24,000 nucleotides of DNA from an uncultured Actinomycetota bacterium (lineage in GTDB: Bacteria > Actinomycetota > Actinomycetes > Mycobacteriales > Jatrophihabitantaceae), in assembly GCA_963775175.1 (NCBI GenBank), contig CAVZHT010000001.1:2434940-2458939 (forward strand), given 5' to 3'. Positions 707-12,076 of this stretch are shown piece after piece. Position numbers and translations under genes: made by a program. Position 1 is the stretch's first letter. The number at the start of each line of letters is the position of its first letter. Under the pieces are notes generated by a model, which saw nothing but the letters and a program-made list of their open reading frames with translations, had not been told where the DNA came from and made no database searches.

Positions 707-3049
707 TCAGCGGTGCGCGGCCAGCGGCGTCGGCTGCGGGCCGTAGGCGGTCAGGAACCGGTCGCGGAAGCTGTCCATCGGCCACACCGGGGCCTTCGCG
801 CCCGGCAGCAGCCCGTCCGGCCAGCCCCACGCCGCGATCCGGTCCATGACCGACGGGTCGGCGCTGATCACGCTGATCGGCACGTCGTGGCTCGCCTGCG
901 TCCCGCTCACGATCGTGGCCGGCTGATGATCGCCGAGCACCACCAGCACCAGGTTCTTGTCGTGGAACGTCGTCACGAACGACACCAGCGTGCTGAGCGT
1001 GTACCGGATCGACTGCCCGTACGCCGCCTGCACATCGCTCGCGTGCTGCCACACCTCCTGCGGGGTGCGGCCCTGCTCGGGCATGCCCTCGAAGATCGTC
1101 CCGTCGCCGACGGCGTTCCAATCGACCGGGTGCGGCAGCGGCGCCCACGGCGTGTGCGACGAGACGAGGTCGATCTCGGCCATCACCGGGCGGTGGTGCG
1201 GCGCCGCGAGCTCGCGCTGCCGGAACGCCGACAGCACGTACTGGTCGGGCATCGCGGCGTAGCTGAACGACGGGCCGCGGTAGCCGACGTTGCGCCGGTC
1301 GTAGATCTTGTCGTAGTGGTAGAACGACCGGCCGACCGCCCAGTCCCGGTAGTTCGACGGCACGTCGTCGACCGTCCGCCACCCCGCCCGCTGGAACGCG
1401 CGGCTCAGCGTGAAGTGGTCGCCCTCGACGAGCTTGTCGTAGCGCTGCTGGCTGCTGATCCACAGCCCCGACTGCAGGGTGGAGTGCGCCAGCCAGCTGA
1501 TACCGCCGAACGTCGGTGACGTGAGGAACGCGCTGCGGGACGCGAAGCCGGCGGCCGCGAGGCTGCGGGTGCCGGACCTGAGCACGTCGTCCACCTGCGG
1601 CGAGAACGACGAACCCTGCACGGCCACCCTGCCGTAGCTCTCGACGAACGCCACGATGACGTCCTTGCCCCGCAGCCCGGTGAGCAGGTCGCTTCCCGGC
1701 TCCTGCGCGAACCGGTCGCCGGCCGAGAGCGCGTGGGAGAACCGGTGCTCGTCGGCGATCGCGGACCGGACGGCGTGGATCTGGTCGTAGGCCAGGCCGG
1801 CCGCGCTGGTGGAGGCGACCGGTGCCCCGGCGACGATCTGCACGCCGGAGACGGCGCAGACCACCCAGACCGCACCGAGCGCGCCGAGCGCCCGCAGCGA
1901 TCCGCGCCGGTGCCTGGCGGCGACCCGGCTCAGCCGCAGCATCGACAGCGGGACGAGGACGACGACGGCGATGCCGGCGAGCACCGCGGCGAGCTCGGCC
2001 ACGACGGCCCACCCCGGCCCGACCGAGTCGCGCAGCACGCCGGCCGCAGGCCCGAACGACCCCCAGTCCGACACCGGGTTGAACGGCCGGCCGAGCTGGT
2101 TGTAGAAGCCCACATCGAGGACCTTGACGACCCCCACCATCCCGAGCAGCAGCCCGACGAGCACCGCGAAGCCCGACCGCAGTCTCGTCGGCAGCACGAG
2201 GCCGGTGACGAGCACGACGAGGCCCTCGACCGGCACCCGGAGGAAGGCGCCCGGCGTCAGCTGTTCGAGGTGGTTCGGCGCCACCAGGGCGGCCCACACG
2301 AGCAGGAAGGCGAGGCCGGTGAGCACGAGAGGCAACGTCGACCGGTCCACGACGTCCTGGCCGCGGTGCCGCAGCCAGAGCCACCGCACGTCGTTTCCGA
2401 ACGACTCGGCGAGCAGCGCGAGCGCGGCGGCCACCGCCAGCACGATCAGCGGACCGGGCAGCAAGCCCGCCGCCGCCACGGTGAGCACGACCCCCTGGAT
2501 CGCCGCCACGACCTTGCACCAGTAGCGCGGCGGGGTCGGCTCGCGCAGCCACGACCATCGGCGGCCGGCCAGCCCGAACAGGTAGCGGGCCGCCCCGATC
2601 GCCAGCACCCACGGGCCCAGCAGCCGGGCGACGTACCCGCTGAGCACGAGGATCAGGAACGCGTCGACCTCCATGTCGAAGCGCGCCCCGTGCGGGGTGA
2701 CGGTGCCGGTGCGCCGCGCGATCCAGCCGTCCACCGCATCGAGGAGGAGCGCGGCGGAGGCCAGGGCGACCAGCGCGGCCACGGAGATGGACCGGTCCAG
2801 GGAGTCGGCGACCAGCGCGGCCACGCCGGCGGCGAGGTTGGCCCGGGCCAGCGTGACCCGGTCGGCCGGCCCGAACGCCGCGACGCCCGGCCGGGCGAAC
2901 GCGTACCGCACGACCGCGTTGACCCCGGCTGCCGCGACCGCGCCGGCGATCCAGCCCGCCGGCCCGAGCCCGACCGTCACCGCCAGCGCGGCGAGCAGCG
3001 TGATCGCGGCGGTCAGGCCCGCGACCGGGCCGGTTCGAACCGTCAGCAC
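707..3049 (-). CDS. Fusion protein: N-terminal CDP-alcohol phosphatidyltransferase, polytopic membrane linker, C-terminal LtaS/MdoB-type (sulfatase/alkaline-phosphatase superfamily) domain
   Basis: This is the C-terminal 780 codons of the tracked 1128-aa minus ORF. I place the start at GTG 3049, preceded by GGAGG with a 5-nt spacer. The CDP-OH transferase motif 'DGWIARRTGTVTPHGARFDMEVD' (DGxxAR..G...D...D) is present. Multiple hydrophobic helices follow. The C-terminal domain carries 'VIVAFVESYG', 'TSPTFGGISW' and 'VVLGDHQP', typical of LtaS/phosphoglycerol-transferase-like domains. The ORF part upstream of 3049 is antisense to the MDR gene and Arg/Pro/Gly-rich, so I excluded it. Confidence 0.8.
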   Translation of the reverse strand: MLTVRTGPVAGLTAAITLLAALAVTVGLGPAGWIAGAVAAAGVNAVVRYAFARPGVAAFGPADRVTLARANLAAGVAALVADSLDRSISVAALVALASAALLLDAVDGWIARRTGTVTPHGARFDMEVDAFLILVLSGYVARLLGPWVLAIGAARYLFGLAGRRWSWLREPTPPRYWCKVVAAIQGVVLTVAAAGLLPGPLIVLAVAAALALLAESFGNDVRWLWLRHRGQDVVDRSTLPLVLTGLAFLLVWAALVAPNHLEQLTPGAFLRVPVEGLVVLVTGLVLPTRLRSGFAVLVGLLLGMVGVVKVLDVGFYNQLGRPFNPVSDWGSFGPAAGVLRDSVGPGWAVVAELAAVLAGIAVVVLVPLSMLRLSRVAARHRRGSLRALGALGAVWVVCAVSGVQIVAGAPVASTSAAGLAYDQIHAVRSAIADEHRFSHALSAGDRFAQEPGSDLLTGLRGKDVIVAFVESYGRVAVQGSSFSPQVDDVLRSGTRSLAAAGFASRSAFLTSPTFGGISWLAHSTLQSGLWISSQQRYDKLVEGDHFTLSRAFQRAGWRTVDDVPSNYRDWAVGRSFYHYDKIYDRRNVGYRGPSFSYAAMPDQYVLSAFRQRELAAPHHRPVMAEIDLVSSHTPWAPLPHPVDWNAVGDGTIFEGMPEQGRTPQEVWQHASDVQAAYGQSIRYTLSTLVSFVTTFHDKNLVLVVLGDHQPATIVSGTQASHDVPISVISADPSVMDRIAAWGWPDGLLPGAKAPVWPMDSFRDRFLTAYGPQPTPLAAHR

Positions 3050-3127
3050 CCTTGCCTCCGTGTCTATGAGGTACAGGATTGGTACGGCGTGCACGAGCAC
3101 GCGGTTCAGCGAGAGGTCCGGACGGCG
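3050..3127. promoter_or_regulatory. Divergent promoter/operator spacer between the fusion gene and the MDR-led operon
   Basis: The 78-bp gap between the divergent start codons contains the least GC-rich stretch of this neighbourhood ('tgtctatgaggtacaggattggtacgg'). A direct GGTAC repeat sits at 3070-3074 and 3081-3085, 11 bp apart. I could not assign -10 or -35 elements with confidence. Confidence 0.35.
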
Positions 3128-4117
3128 ATGACGGCGGTGCGGCGAGAGGCCCGGGCGTTCTGGGTGCAGGCACCCGGTGCGGGTGAGATCCGGCCCGCGA
3201 CCCTCGCGCCGCCCGGCCCGGACGACGTCGTCGTCCGCACCCTGCACTCCGGCATCAGCCGCGGCACGGAGACGCTGGTGTTCCAAGGGCGCGTGCCGAA
3301 GGACCAGTACGCCGCGATGCGGGCGCCGTTCCAGGAGGGCGAGCTGCCCGGGCCGGTGAAATACGGCTACCTCAACGTCGGCGTGGTGGAGCACGGGCCG
3401 CGCCACCTGCAGGACCGCACCGTCTTCTGCCTGTACCCGCACCAGACGGCCTACGTGGTGCCGGCCCGGGCGGTGATCCCGGTGCCGGACGGCGTGCCGG
3501 CGTCGCGGGCCGTGCTCGCCGGGACGGTGGAGACGGCGGTCAACGCGCTGTGGGACGCCGCGCCGCTCGTCGGTGATCGGATCACCGTCGTCGGGGCCGG
3601 CATGGTCGGCTGCTGTGTCGCCCGGCTGCTCGCGCGGTACCCCGCCGTCGAGGTGACCCTCGTCGACATCGACGCCGGCCGGGCCGAGATCGCCGCGCAG
3701 CTGGGCGTCGGGTTCGCCCGGCCGGAGGACGCCACCGGCGAGCGCGACCTCGTCGTGCACACCAGCGCCACGTCGGCCGGGCTGCAGCTGGCGCTCGACC
3801 TGCTCGCGCCGGAGGGCACGGTCCTCGACCTCAGCTGGTACGGCGACGCCGACGTGACGCTGTCGCTGGGCGGCGCCTTCCACTCCCGGCGCCTCGGCAT
3901 CCGGTCCAGCCAGGTCGGGAAGGTCGCGCCCGCCCGCCGGGCCAACCGGACGACGACCGACCGGCTGGCCCTGGCCCTCGAGCTGCTGCGCGATCCGGCG
4001 TTCGACGCGCTGCTGACCGGCGCGTCGCCGTTCGAGGAGCTGCCCGACGTGCTGCCCCGCCTCGCCGACGGCCGCCGCCCGGCGCTGTGCCACAGCGTCA
4101 CCTACGGCGAGGGGTGA
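3128..4117 (+). CDS. MDR-superfamily (zinc-ADH-like) NAD(P)-dependent oxidoreductase, apparently lacking the catalytic-zinc Cys/His ligands
   Basis: ATG 3128 is in frame with the tracked ORF 1733..4117; only this 3' part has coding-like composition. A GroES-like N-terminus reads '[15 protein letters not shown]' where classical enzymes have 'CGxCxSDxH'. The Rossmann motif is '[15 protein letters not shown]'. Confidence 0.8.
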
Positions 4118-6529: not shown

Positions 6530-7232
6530 GCGCCCCTACACGGTGCTGAGCTGCGGCATGTCGATCGACGGCTATCTCGACTGCACCTCGGTGAAGCGGC
6601 TGCGGCTCTCGAACGACGCCGACTTCGACCGGGTCGATGCGGTGCGCGCGACCTGCGACGCGATCTTCGTCGGGGCGGCCACCGTCCGCAACGACAACCC
6701 GCGCCTGCTCGTCCGCTCGGCCGCCCGGCGGCAGCGGCGCGTCGCCCGGGGCCTGCGCCCGTCACCGATCAAGGTGACGGTGACCGGCCGGGCCGAACTC
6801 GACGCGCAGGCCGCCTTCTTCGTCACCGGCGACACCGAGAAGCTGGTGTACTGCGAGAGCTCGAAGCTCGCCGAGGCCCGCGACCGCCTGGGCACCGTCG
6901 CGACCGTCGTCGACGGCGGCCGGCCCGTCGAGATGACGGCGATCACCGAGGACCTGCGGGCCCGCGGCGTCGAGCGGTTGATGGTCGAGGGCGGCGGTTC
7001 GCTGCACACCCAGTTCCTCACCGCCGACCTCGCCGACGAGCTGCATCTCGTCGTCGCCCCGTTCTTCGTCGGCGACTCCCGGGCCCGCCGCTTCGTCGAC
7101 GACGGCCGCTTCCCGTGGAACCCGCGGCGGCGGGCGACGCTGGCCGGGGTCCGGCAGATCGGCGACGTCGTCCTGCTGCGCTACGCGCTGTCGGCGCGGT
7201 TCTGCCCGGACGAGTTGTGGGAGCAGGCGTGA
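6522..7232 (+). CDS. RibD C-terminal-domain / dihydrofolate-reductase-like NADPH-dependent reductase
   Basis: ATG 6522 overlaps the upstream stop by 8 nt (ATGGTTGA). The translation 'PYTVLSCGMSIDGYL...DAIFVGAATVRNDNPRL...LMVEGGGSLHTQFL...DELHLVVAPFFVG' matches the RibD_C pattern. Confidence 0.8.
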   Translation: MVERPYTVLSCGMSIDGYLDCTSVKRLRLSNDADFDRVDAVRATCDAIFVGAATVRNDNPRLLVRSAARRQRRVARGLRPSPIKVTVTGRAELDAQAAFFVTGDTEKLVYCESSKLAEARDRLGTVATVVDGGRPVEMTAITEDLRARGVERLMVEGGGSLHTQFLTADLADELHLVVAPFFVGDSRARRFVDDGRFPWNPRRRATLAGVRQIGDVVLLRYALSARFCPDELWEQA

Positions 7233-7254
7233 CACCCGGCCGCGAGCTGGGCCG

Positions 7255-7728
7255 CTAACCGACCCGCAGCCGCGGCGGGGCCGGCTGCCCGTCGGCGTCG
7301 CGTCGTGCGGTCTCGGCCCAGGCGATGAGGCCGTCGACGTCGATGCCGTGGGGCGCCGACTCGCGGTAGGGGAGCACCCGCTCGACGGCCCGGGTGAGCA
7401 GGGCGCGGGCGCCGGCCGGGTTGCCGCGCAGCGCGTGCGTGAGGCCGACCGCGAGCTGGGCCAGGCCCTGCCACAGATCCCGCTCCCCGGCCGGCGCGCC
7501 CTTCCAGGCCGCCTCCAGCACCTCGTGGGCCTGGAACGGGAAGCCCTCGTCGAGCAGCCGCTGGGCCTCGGTCAGGGTGTCGTCCGGGCCGAGGTCGAGG
7601 GCCTCCGGCACGCCGGGCACGCCGGCCGCGCCCGGGGCGAGCGGGCGGCCGAGGGCGTCCCGCGGGCGGGCGTTGCGCGGCCGCCCCCGCGCGTCCCGAT
7701 CCCGATCCGCGTCCGTCACGGCGATCAT
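7255..7728 (-). CDS. DUF309-family protein
   Basis: I chose the internal ATG (7728) of the tracked ORF 7255..7908. The translation 'RDARGRPRNARPRDALGRPL...EAQRLLDEGFPFQAHEVLEAAWK...LWQGLAQLAVGLTHALRGNPAGA' is the typical DUF309 pattern. The ORF upstream of 7728 overlaps the neighbouring divergent gene. Confidence 0.75.
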   Translation of the reverse strand: MIAVTDADRDRDARGRPRNARPRDALGRPLAPGAAGVPGVPEALDLGPDDTLTEAQRLLDEGFPFQAHEVLEAAWKGAPAGERDLWQGLAQLAVGLTHALRGNPAGARALLTRAVERVLPYRESAPHGIDVDGLIAWAETARRDADGQPAPPRLRVG

Positions 7729-7765
7729 TCTCCGCCTTGAACGCCCCGGCAGGGATGATGGACCG

Positions 7766-8998
7766 ATGGCGGACACGCGGCGGGGGCGCCGGCTCGTCTC
7801 GATGCTGACCGGCCTGCTCGCGGCCGTCCTGCTCGTCGCCGGCTGCAGGTCGTCATCGCGGCCCACATCGAACCGGGCGCCCTCGACGCCGCGGACGACC
7901 GCGTCCACGTCGTCGCGCCCGGCCGCGGCGCTGCCCTCGGCGCGCCCGGTGGCGGTCGCGCCACTACGCCGCGGCGAACGGTGGGTGAGCCTGCCGATGC
8001 CGGGTGGCAGCTACCGGCCGCAGGCCCCGGCCGGCGGCACGGACGACTACCGCTGCATCCTGCTCGACCCGAAGCTGACCACCGATGCGTTCCTGTCCGG
8101 CGTGGTGCTGCGCCCCGGCAACCCGAAGCTCGTCCACCACGCGATCCTGTACCGCGTCGACCCGGCCCAGGTGGCGGCGGCGCGGGCGAAGGACGCCGCC
8201 GACCCCCGGCTCGGCTGGTCGTGCTTCGGCGGCCCGGAGCTGCCGAGCACCGGCGGGGTACTCGGTGGCCTCGACTCGGCGCCGTGGGTGGCGGCCTGGG
8301 CGACCACCGGCGGCGAGCAGCACTTCGCCGCCGGCACCGGGCAGCGGCTGGCCGCCGGCAGCCGGGTGATCCTGCAGATGCACTACAACCTGCTCAACGG
8401 CGGCGGCACCGACAGCACGTCGGTCGCGTTGCGGGTTGCCCGCACCGGTGTCGGGCTGAAGCCGCTGCAGACGCTGCTGCTCCCGGCGCCGGTCGAGCTG
8501 CCCTGCCCGGCCAGCCAGCACGGCCCGCTCTGCGACCGGACGGCCGCCGTCCTGGACGTCGAGCGGCGGTTCGGGGTCGACGCCGGCGCGACGATCGGCG
8601 GCCTGCAACTGCTCTGCGGCGGCTCGCTGACCCATCCGCGGGCCGGGGTCACGCAGTCGTGCCGCCGGCCGGTGCCCGGTCGGATGGTCATCCGGGCGGT
8701 GGCCGGGCACATGCACCTGCTCGGGCGCAGCATCCGGATCGACCTGCTGCGGGCCGACGGCACCGATCGCCGGCTGCTCACCGTCCCCGTTTGGGACTTC
8801 GACGACCAGCGGGCGACCGTGCTCGCGAAGCCGGTCACCGCCCGGCCCGGAGACGCGCTGCGGGTCACCTGCACGCACGACGCCACGCTGCGCGAGAAGC
8901 TGCCGGAACTGCGCAAGCTGGCGCCCCGTTACGTCGTGTGGGGTGAGGGCTCGTCGGACGAGATGTGCCTCGGGATCGTCACCTACACGCTGACCTGA
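7766..8998 (+). CDS. Copper type-II monooxygenase (PHM/DBH-like) lipoprotein
   Basis: ATG 7766 is in frame with the tracked ORF 7394..8998. The signal peptide has the lipobox 'LLVAGC' (Cys codon 7844-7846). All ligands of the two Cu sites are present: CuH 'LVHHAILY' (8135-8140) plus 'LQMHYN', and CuM 'GHMHLLG' (8708-8716) plus 'SSDEMCLG' (Met 8963-8965). Confidence 0.8.
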   Translation: MADTRRGRRLVSMLTGLLAAVLLVAGCRSSSRPTSNRAPSTPRTTASTSSRPAAALPSARPVAVAPLRRGERWVSLPMPGGSYRPQAPAGGTDDYRCILLDPKLTTDAFLSGVVLRPGNPKLVHHAILYRVDPAQVAAARAKDAADPRLGWSCFGGPELPSTGGVLGGLDSAPWVAAWATTGGEQHFAAGTGQRLAAGSRVILQMHYNLLNGGGTDSTSVALRVARTGVGLKPLQTLLLPAPVELPCPASQHGPLCDRTAAVLDVERRFGVDAGATIGGLQLLCGGSLTHPRAGVTQSCRRPVPGRMVIRAVAGHMHLLGRSIRIDLLRADGTDRRLLTVPVWDFDDQRATVLAKPVTARPGDALRVTCTHDATLREKLPELRKLAPRYVVWGEGSSDEMCLGIVTYTLT

Positions 8999-9019
8999 GT
9001 GCCGCGCGAACTTGAGAGC

Positions 9020-9039
9020 TGGGGCACAGGCTCGCCCCA
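9020..9039 (+). terminator. Possible stem-loop after the monooxygenase gene
   Basis: TGGGGC (9020-9025) pairs with GCCCCA (9034-9039) across an 8-nt loop, followed by 'tacggtcggttt'. The U-tract is weak, so this may only be a processing or attenuation structure. Confidence 0.25.
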
Positions 9040-9078
9040 TACGGTCGGTTTGACGATCACGCGGGCAAGGAGCAGTGC

Positions 9079-10170
9079 ATGGCGAACTCGACGCGCCGAC
9101 CGCCGACGAAGCGAGCGCCGGCCCGGCCGTCCGCGCCGCCCGCCCCCGAGCGGCGCCCCGTCCCGCCCGCGCTCGCCGCGCTGCAGCGGGACCCGCGCTG
9201 GATCCTGCTGCCGCTGCGGGCCTACCTCGGGTTCACGTTCCTCTACGCCGGGTTGTCCAAGGTCGGTGGCCACAGCTTCCTGGACGCCTCGTCGCCCACG
9301 TCGATGCACGCCACGCTGGTGGCGGTGCGCGGGCAGAGCCCGATCGGCGGGCTGCTCGGCCCGGTCGAGCAGCACTCGTACGCGTTCGGTCTGCTCATGG
9401 CCCTCGGCGAGCTGGCCGTCGGCATCGGCACCGCGCTCGGACTGTTCGCCCGGGTCGCGGCCACCGGCGGAGCCCTGATCTCGCTATCGCTCTTCCTGAC
9501 GGTGAGCTGGAACGCGACGCCGTGGTACACCGGCGCCGACATCGTCTACCTCTTCGCGTTCACGCCGATCCTGCTCGGCGGCGCCGGCCCGGTCTCGGCC
9601 GACGGCTGGCTGGCCCAGCAGCGGGCGCGCAGCACCGGCCGTGACGCGGTTGCCGAGGACCGCACCCGCCGGGCCGTCCTCGGCGGCATCGCCGGCATCG
9701 CCGGCCTGCTGGCCTTCGCGGTGGCCAGCCTGGTGCGCAAGGGAACGGGCGGGAGCCCGAGCGTCCAGGCCGGCGGCAACCAGACGGGCAGCGGGCCGAC
9801 CGGCGGGGCGCCGGCCGCGAGCGCGCCCGCCCCGAGCGGGTCGACGACCCCGGCGCGCGCGGCCACCGGCGGCAAGCCGATCATCGCCGCCGCCGCCGTC
9901 CCGGTCGGCGGCGCGGCCCCGGCCACGGATCCCAAGAACGGCGACCAGATCTTCGTCCTGCAGCTGAACGCCGGCGAGTTCACCGCGCTGGACAGCGCCT
10001 GCCCGCACCAGGGCTGCCCGGTCAGCTTCATCTCGAAGTCGCAGGGCTTCGTCTGCCCCTGCCACGGCTCGACCTTCGACGCCACCGGCGCGGTGACCCA
10101 GGGCCCGGCCGCGACCGGGCTGGCCAAGATCCCGGTCGCGAAGTCGGGCAGCGAGATCGTCCGGAAGTGA
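9079..10170 (+). CDS. DoxX-family membrane domain fused to a C-terminal Rieske [2Fe-2S] domain
   Basis: AAGGAG lies 6 nt before ATG 9079. The N-terminal 'LLPLRAYLGFTFLYAGLSK' plus four hydrophobic helices is DoxX-like. An internal twin-arginine-like anchor 'RTRRAVLGGIAGIAGLLAFAVA' (about 9661-9726) follows, then a Gly/Pro/Ala/Ser linker. The Rieske motifs 'CPHQGC' and 'CPCHGS' come at the C-terminus. Confidence 0.85.
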   Translation: MANSTRRPPTKRAPARPSAPPAPERRPVPPALAALQRDPRWILLPLRAYLGFTFLYAGLSKVGGHSFLDASSPTSMHATLVAVRGQSPIGGLLGPVEQHSYAFGLLMALGELAVGIGTALGLFARVAATGGALISLSLFLTVSWNATPWYTGADIVYLFAFTPILLGGAGPVSADGWLAQQRARSTGRDAVAEDRTRRAVLGGIAGIAGLLAFAVASLVRKGTGGSPSVQAGGNQTGSGPTGGAPAASAPAPSGSTTPARAATGGKPIIAAAAVPVGGAAPATDPKNGDQIFVLQLNAGEFTALDSACPHQGCPVSFISKSQGFVCPCHGSTFDATGAVTQGPAATGLAKIPVAKSGSEIVRK

Positions 10171-10230
10171 GGACCGCGCGGCGGCCTGCGTGACGTGCAC
10201 GCGTCATAGCCAGTTCCGCACCTGCCCTCC

Positions 10231-10248
10231 GGGCTGCGGGCGGGTGGG
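10231..10248 (+). other. Canonical G-quadruplex motif (G3-N4-G3-N1-G3-N1-G3)
   Basis: The literal sequence is GGGCTGCGGGCGGGTGGG. Confidence 0.6.
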
Positions 10249-10274
10249 TCAGGCCCGCCGGATGACCGCTCGCC

Positions 10275-10291
10275 GGGGGGGGGGGGGGGGG
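10275..10291 (+). repeat. Homopolymeric G17 tract in an intergenic spacer
   Basis: I counted 17 consecutive G directly in the sequence. Further G runs are G7 at 10362-10368 and G6 at 10406-10411. Confidence 0.95.
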
Positions 10292-10415
10292 CACCCTGCC
10301 GGTCGGGCCGCGAGCGCCGGCCGGCCGGGCCGACCCGCGACGGCGCAGGTCGTTCGCCCCTGGGGGGGTGGCTGGTCCGGGTCTAGGTTCGCTGCTTACG
10401 CCGAAGGGGGGACCG

Positions 10416-10547
10416 ATGTCTCGTGTCCTGACTCGCAACATCGTCGTCCGCAACATCGTGGTCAGGGTCCTGGTCGCGGCCGGGGCCGCTTGGGTGCTCG
10501 GCTCGGCCGTCGGTGCCGCGACGATCGGGACCGGCGCCCGCCACTGA
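10416..10547 (+). CDS. Small hydrophobic protein/peptide (43 aa), not in the supplied ORF track
   Basis: GAAGGGGGGA lies 4 nt before ATG 10416. The translation is 'MSRVLTRNIVVRNIVVRVLVAAGAAWVLGSAVGAATIGTGARH*'. About 39 of 43 codons end in G/C, the coding-type bias seen in neighbouring genes. It has a basic N-terminus followed by one hydrophobic segment. GC-rich hairpins and a T-rich run follow the stop. Confidence 0.5.
   Translation: MSRVLTRNIVVRNIVVRVLVAAGAAWVLGSAVGAATIGTGARH
10434..10463 (+). repeat. 15-nt tandem duplication inside the small ORF (encodes RNIVV-RNIVV)
   Basis: cgcaacatcgtcgtc is followed directly by cgcaacatcgtggtc, 14/15 identical and in frame. Confidence 0.9.
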
Positions 10548-10550
10548 GAG

Positions 10551-10619
10551 TGGCCGCCATTAGCGCCACGTGACCGTGGCGGCCGGACCGGCCGGCCGGC
10601 GCGCCGGATTGTCATTTTC
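10551..10619 (+). terminator. Candidate intrinsic terminator region after the small ORF
   Basis: There are alternative stems: GGCCGCCA (10552-10559) with TGGCGGCC (10577-10584), or CGCCACG (10564-10570) with CGTGGCG (10575-10581) across a tgac loop. The palindrome CCGGCGCGCCGG (10596-10607) follows, then 'attgtcatttt'. Confidence 0.35.
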
Positions 10620-10786
10620 GCGGGCCGTTCGTCCCTGGGTCGGTCTCCGCCGCGGGGCTAACTTCGCCCGTGACGCAGCCGGCCGGACGCGTCGATCGGG
10701 GGCCCGCCTGCCCCCGGAGTGACGCGGGCCGCGGTCGCGCCGCCGGCACGGTCCCGCGCCGGATCCGCGTCCTGGAGGGAGATCAC

Positions 10787-12076
10787 GTGTCCCGTCCCCG
10801 CCGTCGCAAGATCCTCGTTCTGGGCCTCGCGGCCGCCGCGATCGCGTGGCTGGTCGGCTCTGGGGCCGGAGCCGCGTCCGCCTCCGCGCACCCCCATCGC
10901 AGCCATACGCTCGTCGTCGCGGCCGGGGCGAGCACCACCAGCCACACCGCCGACCGCGGAAACCGCCACTCCTGCCGGCACGCCGGCTTCACCACCATCG
11001 GTGCCGCAGTGGCCGCGGCGTCGCCCGGCGACACCGTGCTGGTCTGTCCGGGCACCTACGCCGAGGACGTGCTCGTCGGCAAGAGCCTGCACCTCGTCGG
11101 CCGGCACGCGACGATCGACGCGACCGGGCGGGAGAACGCCCTGCAGATCGTCACGTCGTGGGTCTCGGTCAGCGGCTTCCGCCTCGCCAACGCGAACGGG
11201 GAGGGGCTGCTCGTCGGCGTCGACACCCTCGGCGACGCCGGGCTGCTGACCTCGCAGGTCCTCACCCACGTGCGGGTCGACCACGTTGCGGCCGTCGACA
11301 ACAACAAGGGCTTCAACGGCACCGAGAACAGCAACTGCAAGTACCCGGGCGACTGCGGCGGCGGCATCCACCTGCAGGTCACCAAGTGGTCGTCGGTGCG
11401 TGACTCGGTCGTGGTCGGCAACTCCGACGGCATCCTGGTGACCGACGACTACGGGCCGGCCTCGCACAACCTGGTCGAAGGCAACTACGTCAGCGACAAC
11501 ACGACCGAGTGCGGCATCGTCCTGCCGTCCCACAACCCCGGTGCGGTCACCTTCGACCCGCAGACCTTCGCGGTGACCGGGCGCAACCCGGACGTCGGCG
11601 GCGTCTTCGACAACGTCGTCAAGCACAACATCACGGTGCGCAACGGCACCGCGAAGGCCCCGCCCGAGTTCGGCGGCGGCGGCAGCGGCTCCGGCATCGG
11701 GATCTTCGGGTCGGGTCCGGGCACCGGCGCCTACGACAACGTGGTCGAGGACAACTACGCCGCAGGCAACGGCCTGGCCGGGTTCACCATCCACGCGCAC
11801 CTGCCCGGCGGCGAGGACGTCAACGGCAACCGGATCGTCGGCAACCTGTTCGGCACCAACAACACCGGCGGGGACGGCTACGACGGGCCGCCGGGGCCGA
11901 TCGACTTCCAGACGACCGGCATCGCCGTGTACTCGGCGCCGACGGTCCGGATGACCATCGAACACAACCGCATCTTCGACAACGAGATCGGGATCTGGTT
12001 GAGCAACACCGTCACCGCGCACGGGCTGAACCACAACCGGTTCTTCCACGTGACGACCCGGGTCGTTCGCGGCTGA
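10787..12076 (+). CDS. Secreted right-handed parallel beta-helix repeat protein (pectin-lyase-fold/NosD-like)
   Basis: GGAGGGA lies 6 nt before GTG 10787, in frame with the tracked ORF 10670..12076. The signal peptide is 'RRRKILVLGLAAAAIAWLVGSGAGAASASA'. Repeated 'N..(V/I).(G/D)N' beta-helix rungs are visible ('VVGNSDGILV', 'VEGNYVSDN', 'VVKHNITVRNG', 'VEDNYAAGNG', 'IVGNLFGTNN', 'IEHNRIFDNEIGIW'). Confidence 0.8.
   Translation: MSRPRRRKILVLGLAAAAIAWLVGSGAGAASASAHPHRSHTLVVAAGASTTSHTADRGNRHSCRHAGFTTIGAAVAAASPGDTVLVCPGTYAEDVLVGKSLHLVGRHATIDATGRENALQIVTSWVSVSGFRLANANGEGLLVGVDTLGDAGLLTSQVLTHVRVDHVAAVDNNKGFNGTENSNCKYPGDCGGGIHLQVTKWSSVRDSVVVGNSDGILVTDDYGPASHNLVEGNYVSDNTTECGIVLPSHNPGAVTFDPQTFAVTGRNPDVGGVFDNVVKHNITVRNGTAKAPPEFGGGGSGSGIGIFGSGPGTGAYDNVVEDNYAAGNGLAGFTIHAHLPGGEDVNGNRIVGNLFGTNNTGGDGYDGPPGPIDFQTTGIAVYSAPTVRMTIEHNRIFDNEIGIWLSNTVTAHGLNHNRFFHVTTRVVRG

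Follow-up and report, generated by a model that had tools for sequence, protein, structure and literature searches.

A gene in the 24,000-nucleotide stretch of actinobacterial DNA analysed here (the window) encodes a fusion of a DoxX-type membrane domain to a Rieske [2Fe-2S] domain. [quoted passage not shown]

Domain architecture and topology

The predicted protein, whose open reading frame begins with the ATG at 9079, matches three Pfam profiles above their gathering scores (GA): DoxD at residues 44-181 (E 3.4e-8, 34.0 bits, GA 22.7), DoxX at residues 43-143 (E 8.7e-6, 26.7 bits, GA 23.6) and Rieske at residues 287-351 (E 2.1e-13). Hydropathy and an AlphaFold2 model (mean pLDDT 86.5) agree on four transmembrane (TM) helices in the DoxX part (residues 39-63, 100-120, 124-143 and 153-167). 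Profile matches and helix number together are those of the DoxX/DoxD superfamily (Pfam PF07681/PF04173), and K61, E111, W144, P148, W149 and D154 of this domain are invariant in the homologue alignment. In the model, a single long helix (residues 190-221) holds both the twin-arginine (RR) motif and the fifth TM helix (TM5). The stretch that follows is disordered from about residue 222 to 260, with pLDDT below 50 for residues 225-253, and the Rieske part is beta-rich. Linker columns are variable in the alignments, and the spacing from RR to Rieske box I, estimated with a fixed 20-residue helix, is spread widely among divergent representatives. PDB and Foldseek matches all fall on the Rieske domain or the anchor; no solved structure matched the DoxX part by sequence or by fold. 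The order DoxX, anchor, linker, Rieske put forward in the original prediction is borne out at every position by Pfam, hydropathy and AlphaFold2 (Table 1).

Charged residues are distributed unevenly across the predicted topology, with nine lysines and arginines in the N-terminus and six in the loop between TM4 and TM5 (both inside) vs one and none in the outer loops. This pattern supports an N-terminus inside the cell, and because of this positive-inside distribution the Rieske domain is placed on the extracytoplasmic side.

Table 1. Features of the DoxX-Rieske locus, in window coordinates.
Feature	Position	Strand	Details	Basis
PHM/DBH-like copper monooxygenase lipoprotein	7763..8998	+	Upstream neighbour	Cu2_monoox_C E 1.8e-7
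Upstream element TGAGAGC-N4-GCACAGG-N9-TACGGT	9001..9045	+	In the 80-bp gap	Shared with L171 and L084
6-bp hairpin TGGGGC/GCCCCA	9020..9039	+	8-nt loop; proposed terminator	No U-tract, not conserved
Shine-Dalgarno AAGGAG	9067..9072	+	6 nt before ATG 9079	Kept in L171
DoxX-Rieske gene	9079..10170	+	363 aa, stop codon included	ORF list; Pfam DoxD, DoxX, Rieske
DoxD/DoxX four-helix membrane domain	9199..9588	+	aa 41-170, N-terminus predicted cytoplasmic	Pfam, AlphaFold2 helices, positive-inside counts
Cytoplasmic loop after TM4	9589..9660	+	aa 171-194; short helix 174-184	Six Arg in aa 171-199
Twin-arginine motif R-T-R-R-A-V-L	9661..9681	+	aa 195-201	RR conservation in homologues
TM5, putative Tat signal-anchor, then R220-K221	9676..9741	+	aa 200-219	Hydropathy, model helix 190-221, bc1 Rieske alignment
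Gly/Pro/Ala/Ser/Thr low-complexity linker	9742..9873	+	aa 222-265	Length varies among homologues
bc1/b6f-type Rieske [2Fe-2S] domain	9874..10167	+	aa 266-363	Pfam, PDB profile, Foldseek
Rieske box I CPHQGC	10000..10017	+
Rieske box II CPCHGS	10054..10071	+

A predicted internal twin-arginine anchor

The segment RTRRAVLGGIAGIAGLLAFAVA (residues 195-216, nucleotides 9661-9726) places T-R-R-A-V-L before a hydrophobic stretch, a match to the Tat consensus (S/T)-R-R-x-F/L-L that is conserved family-wide. R197 is present in 120/120 close homologues, R198 in 119/120 and T or S at position 196 in 101/120. The RR pair followed by a hydrophobic stretch also recurs in 107 of the 114 divergent full-length representatives (50%-identity clusters), with the consensus R-R-x-[LFV]-[LV]; the n-region is longer in divergent members of the family. 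PDB profile matches to proteobacterial bc1 Rieske subunits cover not just the cluster domain but also the RR-TM anchor. This alignment with the N-terminal anchor of bc1 Rieske proteins, along with the conserved RR, supports the earlier suggestion of a Tat signal-anchor of the Rieske type at this internal position.

Dual Sec/Tat membrane proteins are described as having the N-terminus inside, Sec helices that are even in number and lead up to a cytoplasmic RR just ahead of the final helix, and a loop of at least 8 residues (Keller 2012; Tooke 2017, PMC5449189). The window protein presents four helices, a cytoplasmic loop that sets TM4 about 26 residues apart from the RR motif, the RR itself and then TM5. 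Positive charge on the C-terminal side of the final helix is a Sec-release feature (Tooke et al. 2017, PMC5449189); here R220 is found in 120/120 homologues, and position 221 is K or R in 59/120. The window protein thus resembles in architecture the dual Sec/Tat membrane proteins that Tooke et al. (2017) describe. The last helix of validated substrates is poorly hydrophobic, with a positive predicted insertion free energy (PMC5449189), whereas TM5 has a Kyte-Doolittle value of 2.21, the highest of the five helices, and a crude 19-residue Hessa-scale sum of about 0.0 vs 1.9-4.8 for TM1-4. Given this hydrophobicity, Sec insertion of TM5 is conceivable, and TM5 might be inserted by Sec.

Among the known systems nearest to this protein is QcrA of actinobacteria (e.g. 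S. coelicolor Sco2149), the founding example of a Rieske protein inserted by both Sec and Tat. It is likewise polytopic and N-in, with an internal RR directly before the last helix, positive charge after it and an exported bc-type Rieske domain. It differs in having three helices, a QcrA_N domain and a place as a bcc subunit, where the window protein has a four-helix DoxX domain and a long disordered linker. QcrA identity was rejected for the window protein, which scored 39.1 bits vs 275 for NCBIfam bc1_QcrA_actin (NF050121) and has no QcrA_N domain. The Sco3746 and polyferredoxin families (Tooke et al. 2017) also have five TM domains (TMDs) and export a cofactor domain, with RR preceding TMD5 and positive charge following it. 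Unlike the window protein, they have di-heme or polyferredoxin membrane domains and MoCo or 4Fe-4S cofactors. Insertion of their TMD5 is predicted to have a positive free energy, whereas crude scales rank TM5 of the window protein as its most hydrophobic helix. Tooke et al. (2017, eLife, PMC5449189) describe Kitasatospora setae KSE_30950 as a Rieske homologue from an actinobacterium for which five TMDs are predicted, with the RR adjoining TMD5, and by that description it is probably a member of the DoxX-Rieske family. It occupies a single sentence of that paper, in which DoxX is not mentioned, the protein was not tested and no function was proposed.

Type and predicted potential of the Rieske domain

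The cluster-binding region follows the bc1/b6f-type pattern CxHxGC...CxCH with both ligand pairs and the disulfide cysteines. All four cluster ligands and both disulfide cysteines are present in 120/120 homologues, the invariant residues being C308, H310, C313, C326, C328 and H329. The fold is that of a Rieske domain: the best Foldseek matches (8hn2, 2zt9_D, 6rqf_D, 5nqd_B and 5cxm, all at probability 1.00) include b6f and AioB, and the best PDB sequence matches by hmmsearch, PetC3 (5cxm) and b6f PetC, agree with them. By these matches, the domain is assigned to the exported bc/b6f/AioB class with disulfide cysteines.

The closest solved Rieske domains are Synechocystis PetC3 (PDB 5CXM) and the soluble domain of the Chlorobaculum tepidum Rieske protein (8HN2), with a sequence E of 7e-17 and TM scores of 0.83 and 0.74, respectively, on the target. 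Like the window domain, both are of minimal size for a Rieske domain, at about 100 residues, and contain the disulfide. PetC3, a protein of unknown function outside the b6f complex, is tethered to the plasma membrane; it is lipid-anchored with no membrane-domain fusion, whereas the window Rieske domain is fused to DoxX. At the hydrogen-bond positions PetC3 has Ala and Phe vs Ser and Phe in the window protein, and across the homologues Ser331 is present in 119/120 while the Tyr of CPCHGSxY is replaced by Phe333 in 113/120. Ser and Tyr hydrogen-bond donors after box II tune the Rieske potential (rule reviewed in PMC10172866). By this rule, the retained Ser331 and the exchange of Tyr for Phe333 predict an intermediate potential, between those of PetC3/Chlorobaculum (+135/+160 mV) and bc1 (about +300 mV).

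Family distribution and gene neighbourhoods

DoxX-Rieske proteins constitute a large, uncharacterised, mainly actinobacterial family; our search returned 932 homologues at E<=1e-5, almost all of them sharing this architecture. Many homologues are named 'thiosulfate dehydrogenase [quinone] large subunit' by JGI automatic annotation, and the Pfam DoxD match is in line with a thiosulfate:quinone oxidoreductase (TQO, DoxD). This identity is almost certainly wrong for the window protein, which reaches 17.3 bits against NCBIfam TQO_large_DoxD (NF041179), far under the curated cut-off of 300, with no DoxA domain or gene in the protein or the window genes scanned. Characterised TQO is not known to have a Rieske domain. 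The JGI name arises from domain-level transfer. What DoxDA TQO does share with the window protein is a DoxD-type four-helix membrane domain with an extracytoplasmic partner, a likeness on which the proposed quinone coupling is based; in the window protein the partner is an iron-sulfur domain and not DoxA.

Gene order in a sister clade (55-59% identical) brings the family close to respiratory genes. Its members lie in the fixed order CobT-DUF3043-[DoxX-Rieske]-ErpA-PfkB-AsnB-CtaC-CtaF-QcrCAB at 19 genome loci (L001-L018, L041) and on two additional contigs (L169, L170), and at two Acidimicrobiia loci (L046, L047) a ctaC match lies 5-9 kb from the DoxX-Rieske gene, in L047 as a ctaC-ctaD-ctaF cluster. 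These neighbourhoods, and a Rieske type that is also that of quinol-oxidising complexes, would fit an accessory paralogue of the respiratory chain that would work with the bcc-aa3 branch, either as an alternative quinol-oxidising Rieske module or as an assembly or redox-maintenance factor. Nonetheless, we consider such a role unlikely. The block belongs to the conserved core genome of a single lineage, where proximity may reflect inheritance and not function, the DoxX-Rieske gene never lies inside the qcr or cta operons, and unrelated genes separate it from the cta operon, about 5 kb away, in Acidimicrobiia. Kitasatospora genomes encode orthologues of the window protein at 41-46% identity (L019-L050), with neither cta nor qcr in the vicinity, and genomic position varies for the window copy and the rest of its clade. 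Relatives of the DoxX-Rieske protein also carry a separate QcrA.

At the Kitasatospora-syntenic site, the Streptomyces orthologues are DoxX-only, and the DoxX domain can therefore work without its Rieske partner, a point against the relay function proposed below. Together with DoxX family membership, these orthologues would fit a thiol or oxidative-stress oxidoreductase resembling the M. tuberculosis DoxX-SseA-SodA complex, with the Rieske cluster as an added redox centre. As a precedent, M. tuberculosis DoxX is reported to belong to a membrane complex that acts as a thiol oxidoreductase (Nambi et al. 2015, cited in PMC7907618). That the window protein acts in this way is very unlikely, as no SseA or SodA genes occur nearby at any locus examined, the DoxX domain contains no conserved cysteines, and a Rieske cluster is not a thiol-disulfide catalyst. 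At one locus (L049) a stand-alone Tat-Rieske gene lies immediately upstream of the DoxX-Rieske gene, an arrangement that speaks for DoxX and Rieske belonging together.

Relationship to the adjacent copper monooxygenase

Exactly 80 bp separate the stop of the PHM-like gene (8998) from the DoxX-Rieske ATG on the same strand. The PHM-like protein, a member of a family of more than 3000 proteins, retains six copper ligands (HH124/125, H206, H315, H317 and M400) and a conserved lipobox, LVAGC. The lipobox and the distribution of lysine and arginine bear out the original prediction that the lipoprotein and the Rieske domain would both sit on the outer face of the membrane. The dedicated path from menaquinol through the Rieske domain to the copper monooxygenase that it built on this shared location is not supported, and the absence of conserved synteny, named there as grounds for refutation, is essentially what was found. 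PHM-like genes occur within 10 kb on either side at 0/80 DoxX-Rieske genome loci, and tblastn with profile searches of six-frame ORFs found DoxX or Rieske genes at 0/80 PHM-like metagenome loci, 47 of which have at least 1.2 kb of downstream sequence (15 of those 47 at least 64% identical). Wherever the upstream flank could be read in close DoxX-Rieske homologues (58-68% identity), the neighbour differed from one homologue to the next. The gene downstream of a 79%-identical PHM-like gene is unrelated, and PHM-like genes at 74-80% identity have no DoxX-Rieske partner at L150, L165, L088 or L099. In other lineages no conserved redox partner was found near PHM-like genes, whose neighbours encode a SpoU methylase, a photolyase-related protein, a CDP-alcohol phosphatidyltransferase, GcvH and an ABC ATPase.

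The pair recurs only on L171, a 1.6-kb contig from a sister organism in which the PHM-like protein is 84% identical; shared descent explains the pair at this level of identity. On the gene orders compared, the position behind the PHM-like gene is a local feature of one lineage. It is quite unlikely that the DoxX-Rieske protein is the dedicated reductant of its neighbour, replacing ascorbate by a route from menaquinol through DoxX and Rieske to CuH. Common strand and short gap, the predicted outer-face location of both domains and retention of the pair in the nearest relative are consistent with this role, and electron transfer from menaquinol through a Rieske cluster at roughly +150 to +250 mV to copper would be downhill. 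On one further contig, L172, whose DoxX-Rieske is 69% identical, just 94 nt precede the gene, and a PHM-like neighbour could lie beyond the contig end. Weighing more heavily against a dedicated reductant are the empty counts in both directions, the closely related PHM-like genes that lack the partner, the housekeeping character of PHM-like neighbours elsewhere, and a conserved 5' element belonging to the DoxX-Rieske gene itself.

This upstream element recurs in L171 and L084 with its internal distances of 11 and 16 nt preserved and a local alignment z of 4.9 vs shuffles; in L084 the gene upstream of it is divergent. It is probably the promoter or regulatory region of the DoxX-Rieske gene. Because the neighbours differ and the element is common to L084 with its divergent upstream gene, we regard DoxX-Rieske, on this comparative evidence, as an autonomous gene with no fixed gene partner. 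The terminator that had been proposed at 9020-9039 did not hold up, the hairpin there being weak. A consensus scan found no terminator in the 80-bp gap, 8990-9085 folds no more stably than shuffled sequence (z = +0.58), and in L171 the 5' arm reads TCAAGC while the 3' arm is unchanged, with no compensation; a conserved terminator at this position is ruled out by these results. A sigma-70 promoter scan of 7000-11000 gave no sites, although such a scan is uninformative for a 75% GC actinomycete, and an Rfam search of the whole window gave no matches. Since the hairpin is weak and unconserved and the DoxX-Rieske gene appears to have its own conserved upstream element, neither obligatory co-transcription with the PHM-like gene nor full separation is implied.

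Proposed function

In the mechanism we favour, Sec would insert the four-helix DoxD/DoxX bundle with its N-terminus inside, leaving the conserved twin-arginine motif at the end of the cytoplasmic loop. TM5 would then act as a Tat signal-anchor and move the Rieske domain, already folded and cofactor-loaded, to the outer face, where it would hang on a flexible 45-residue linker. Assembled through this putative division of labour, the protein would by itself relay single electrons between the menaquinone pool and redox partners outside the cytoplasm. We infer this role, with its quinone coupling and direction of electron flow, from the parallels offered by DoxD of TQO and the mobile Rieske head of bc1/b6f. 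A quinol donates two electrons, and a second acceptor, comparable to heme b of bc complexes, is not evident in the DoxX-Rieske protein, which counts against a quinol relay.

A bolder and highly unlikely reading would make DoxX-Rieske proteins minimal 'cytochrome-b-less' quinol:acceptor oxidoreductases and a further dual Sec/Tat family, feeding single menaquinol electrons to extracytoplasmic metalloenzymes, with one paralogue recruited in this lineage to reduce a PHM/DBH-like copper monooxygenase lipoprotein. If true, such recruitment would show how the bacterial representatives of an 'ascorbate-dependent' enzyme family can do without ascorbate as their reductant. Gene order lends no support to DoxX-Rieske explaining the reduction of bacterial PHM-like monooxygenases.

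For the family as a whole, the JGI label 'thiosulfate dehydrogenase [quinone] large subunit' is an over-transfer. If the DoxX-Rieske protein is the quinone-linked, outward-facing Rieske carrier that we favour, it would give Actinomycetota a simple and widespread route by which single electrons leave the membrane for the cell surface. The unusual hydrophobicity of the last helix would, in addition, make the DoxX-Rieske family well suited as a further test of the model of hand-over from Sec to Tat.

The DoxX-Rieske fusion and its family

The domain layout of the DoxX-Rieske protein in the window (G+C ~75%) is summarized in the table below. The original prediction had described a DoxX domain, an arginine-bearing segment, a linker, Rieske motifs and a short gap to the upstream PHM-like copper monooxygenase gene; ORF, Pfam and AlphaFold2 analyses confirmed all of these in full, positions included. 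The gap from the PHM-like stop codon (8996-8998) to the DoxX-Rieske start is exactly 80 bp, with both genes on the same strand. In an AlphaFold2 model built from 120 homologues (mean pLDDT 86.5, pTM 0.68), the four DoxX helices are followed by a short helix on the cytoplasmic side and then by a single long helix (190-221) that holds both the RR motif and the fifth span; residues ~222-260 are disordered, and the Rieske domain is rich in beta structure.

Features of the DoxX-Rieske gene, its product and surrounding sequence
Feature	Position	Strand	Remarks
CDP-alcohol phosphatidyltransferase	nt ~707-3115	-	~767 aa; homology to contig L172
Rossmann-type protein	nt ~3117-4117	+	~333 aa; homology to contig L172
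PHM/DBH-like monooxygenase	nt 7763-8998	+	lipoprotein, lipobox LVAGC conserved; all six PHM copper ligands invariant
Shine-Dalgarno AAGGAG	nt 9067-9072	+	ATG of DoxX-Rieske 6 nt further on
DoxX-Rieske ORF	nt 9079-10170	+	363 aa, ATG start
DoxX	aa 43-143		Pfam, E 8.7e-6, above gathering score
DoxD	aa 44-181		Pfam, E 3.4e-8, above gathering score
RR/TM5 segment RTRRAVLGGIAGIAGLLAFAVA	nt 9661-9726	+	string quoted in the original prediction
Gly/Pro/Ala/Ser/Thr linker	nt 9742-9873	+	
Rieske	aa 287-351		Pfam, E 2.1e-13, above gathering score
CPHQGC	nt 10000-10017	+	
CPCHGS	nt 10054-10071	+	
17-G homopolymer	nt 10275-10291		in ~500-bp gap after DoxX-Rieske stop; could be an assembly artefact or slippage-prone tract
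Small ORF MSRVLTRNIVVRNIVVRVLVAAGAAWVLGSAVGAATIGTGARH	nt 10416-10547	+	43 aa; purine-rich Shine-Dalgarno-like stretch just upstream; just before NosD-like beta-helix gene
Terminator-like hairpin	nt 10592-10607		T-rich tail; after the small ORF

A word-indexed search returned 932 homologues at E<=1e-5, nearly all DoxD plus Rieske, and an exhaustive search of 50%-identity cluster representatives returned 209 clusters at E<=1e-30, with full-length fusions in 114 of the best 150 representatives. Relatives in the genome collection number at least 591 and belong to Jatrophihabitantaceae and related Actinomycetota MAGs, Kitasatospora, Streptomyces and Acidimicrobiales. Among 120 aligned homologues, the four cluster ligands, both disulfide cysteines and R220, directly after the fifth helix (TM5), are invariant, as is R197 (120/120); R198 is kept in 119/120 and T/S196 in 101/120. 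An RR pair followed by a hydrophobic stretch separates DoxX from Rieske in 107 of the 114 divergent full-length representatives (consensus R-R-x-[LFV]-[LV], several being textbook RRxFLxK). Judged from sequence, the fusion is a real family rather than an accident, and its architecture has already been catalogued and mentioned in published work.

A four-cysteine motif, CG-x-[YF]-x2-G-x-C-x6-8-C-x4-5-C, which may form an extra cytoplasmic metal or Fe-S site, occupies the cytoplasmic loop from TM4 to RR in 16 of the 150 best representatives (P0262, P0270, P0274, P0275, P0279 and 11 more); the window protein is without it. It recurs in a 402-aa DoxX-Rieske protein of an Acidimicrobiaceae MAG (L049, 10413-11621), where a stand-alone Tat-signal Rieske gene (9857-10309; 150 aa, box II CPWH, one disulfide cysteine missing) lies directly upstream.

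Topology, export and domain relationships

On the inside, the N-terminus of the window protein carries 9 lysine and arginine residues, the TM2-3 turn 1 and the TM4-5 loop 6; the two outer loops carry 1 and 0. This distribution indicates an N-in protein with five helices and the Rieske domain outside, and so agrees with the outer-face placement originally predicted. The proposed resemblance of the internal segment to a Rieske Tat signal-anchor is likewise upheld: profile matches to proteobacterial bc1 Rieske subunits cover both the cluster domain and the RR-helix anchor, and the segment is therefore homologous to such an anchor. Keller et al. 2012 and Tooke et al. 2017 (PMC5449189) define dual Sec/Tat-inserted proteins by an RR motif that precedes the final helix, a loop at least 8 residues long, positive charge following the final helix, and low hydrophobicity of that helix. 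The window protein has the same layout and fits the RR, loop and charge features (three of four); on crude hydropathy scales TM5 is its most hydrophobic helix. Orthologues of the window protein occur in Kitasatospora (L019-L050), and the Kitasatospora setae Rieske homologue KSE_30950, described by Tooke et al. 2017 (PMC5449189) as having five predicted TMDs and the RR motif beside TMD5, therefore very probably belongs to the same family.

Among curated models, the Rieske domain matches b6f PetC, proteobacterial bc1 Rieske, actinobacterial QcrA and arsenite oxidase AioB best, though none of these scores comes near its equivalog cut-off. Its nearest solved structures are Synechocystis PetC3 (5CXM), b6f PetC, Chlorobaculum tepidum Rieske (8HN2), Kuenenia Rieske domains and AioB, all of which are exported and contain the disulfide. 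At the positions after box II where bc1/b6f proteins carry Ser and Tyr, this family carries Ser331 and Phe333. Because Ser331 is kept and Phe replaces Tyr, the hydrogen-bond rule for Rieske potential (PMC10172866) predicts a value between those of PetC3/Chlorobaculum (+135/+160 mV) and bc1/b6f (~+300 mV).

PDB sequence-profile and Foldseek searches returned no solved relative of the DoxX domain, which by its sequence is a superfamily-level member only. Thiosulfate:quinone oxidoreductase DoxD was rejected as an identity: its equivalog model gives 17 bits where 300 are required, and no DoxA turned up in the protein or in the window genes scanned, so the JGI label 'thiosulfate dehydrogenase [quinone] large subunit' is a domain-level over-transfer. 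K61, S87, E111, W144, P148, W149, T151 and D154, counted as invariant polar or aromatic residues, cluster in the outer loops and at helix ends, where the tethered Rieske head could dock.

Genomic context and candidate partners

The original prediction had proposed an electron path dedicated to the PHM-like monooxygenase. We found no tblastn match to this protein or any other window neighbour within +-10 kb of DoxX-Rieske in 80 genome loci, and no DoxX-Rieske near PHM-like genes in 80 metagenome loci (tblastn plus the A1 profile on six-frame ORFs; 47 loci with >=1.2 kb downstream, 15 of those >=64% identical). Close homologues with readable flanks instead adjoin NAD_binding_1 (P0019, 64% identity), HTH_20/MFS (P0020, 67%), GH35 (P0005, 67%), adh_short/PNPOx (P0013, 65%), Aldedh (P0038, 60%) or LPG_synthase/TetR (P0012, 68%). 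The PHM-like family exceeds 3000 members, mostly annotated 'hypothetical', and has no conserved redox partner gene beside it in any lineage examined; on a 398-kb contig, the gene after a 79%-identical homologue encodes an unrelated secreted protein, and neighbours in other lineages are housekeeping genes. The one exception is the nearest relative, the 1.6-kb contig L171, with DUF309(-), PHM-like(+) (84% identical) and the first 19 codons of DoxX-Rieske, a pairing explained by shared descent at that distance. Contig L172 (DoxX-Rieske 69% identical) begins 94 nt before the gene and gives no information on the upstream neighbour; downstream it carries genes orthologous to window 707-4117, indicating local rearrangement. 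In the window this region presents two long overlapping ORFs on opposite strands, resolved by homology to L172. A lack of conserved synteny elsewhere had been named beforehand as a refuting outcome and is essentially what we observed; the dedicated path is not supported. The evidence for the PHM-like enzyme as a local client consists of adjacency in two closely related contigs, and we consider this role improbable.

A tie of the family to the respiratory cta/qcr region is a lead, not proof. A sister clade (P0046, P0049 and P0078; 55-59% identical) occupies a fixed position, CobT-DUF3043(-)-[DoxX-Rieske]-ErpA-PfkB-AsnB-CtaC-CtaF-QcrCAB, flanked by DUF3043 and by erpA, which encodes an Fe-S carrier, a few kb from ctaC-ctaF-qcrCAB in the conserved actinobacterial respiratory region. 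This site recurs in 19 genome loci (L001-L018, L041) and contigs L169 and L170, with L168 sharing the DUF3043/erpA placement. The location is confined to one lineage, at no locus does DoxX-Rieske fall within a cta or qcr operon, and in Acidimicrobiia the cta operon lies 5 kb off with unrelated genes between. The window copy shares 60-73% pairwise identity with variable-context homologues against 49-60% with cta-block copies; it groups loosely with the former and looks like an accessory paralogue. Gene order does not specify the extracytoplasmic partner of DoxX-Rieske.

In Kitasatospora, DoxX-Rieske adjoins a LuxR-type response regulator gene. The syntenic site in Streptomyces (L051-L080, e.g. 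L054 9860-10441) carries a DoxX-only orthologue of ~193 aa, ending soon after TM4, beside a histidine-kinase-like ORF, indicating that the Rieske module was gained or lost between these sister genera.

Upstream elements

A terminator suggested at 9020-9039 did not hold up as a conserved feature: the hairpin stem is six base pairs long and lacks a U-tract, the terminator scan did not call it, the region folds no better than shuffles, and in the sister contig L171 the 5' arm is altered to TCAAGC while the 3' arm stays the same. Transcripts from the PHM-like gene may read through into DoxX-Rieske. A composite element, TGAGAGC-N4-GCA(C/T)AGG-N9-TACGGT, has identical spacing in the window (9013/9024/9040), L171 and L084 (local alignment z = 4.9 against mononucleotide shuffles), and TACGGT precedes the start by 39 nt (window) or 40 nt (L084). 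Because L084 keeps it beside a different upstream gene, a divergent glycoside hydrolase, the element suggests that DoxX-Rieske travels with its own promoter or regulatory region. Three other loci (L172, L082 and L081) share an AT-richer element 30-50 nt upstream of the start with a short inverted repeat (e.g. GGTTG-TGAGTT-CAACC or TGTTG-N10-CAACA), which might serve as an operator; L082 has an ArsR-type HTH_20 gene immediately upstream.

Proposed function

The best-supported reading is an autonomous five-helix Sec-DoxX/Tat-Rieske membrane protein. Its DoxX part would be Sec-inserted and would carry the Rieske [2Fe-2S] domain on a flexible tether, with the latter probably sent to the outer face by Tat. 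On the analogy of DoxD and of the mobile Rieske head in bc complexes, its most likely role would be as a one-electron relay linking the menaquinone pool with extracytoplasmic partners.
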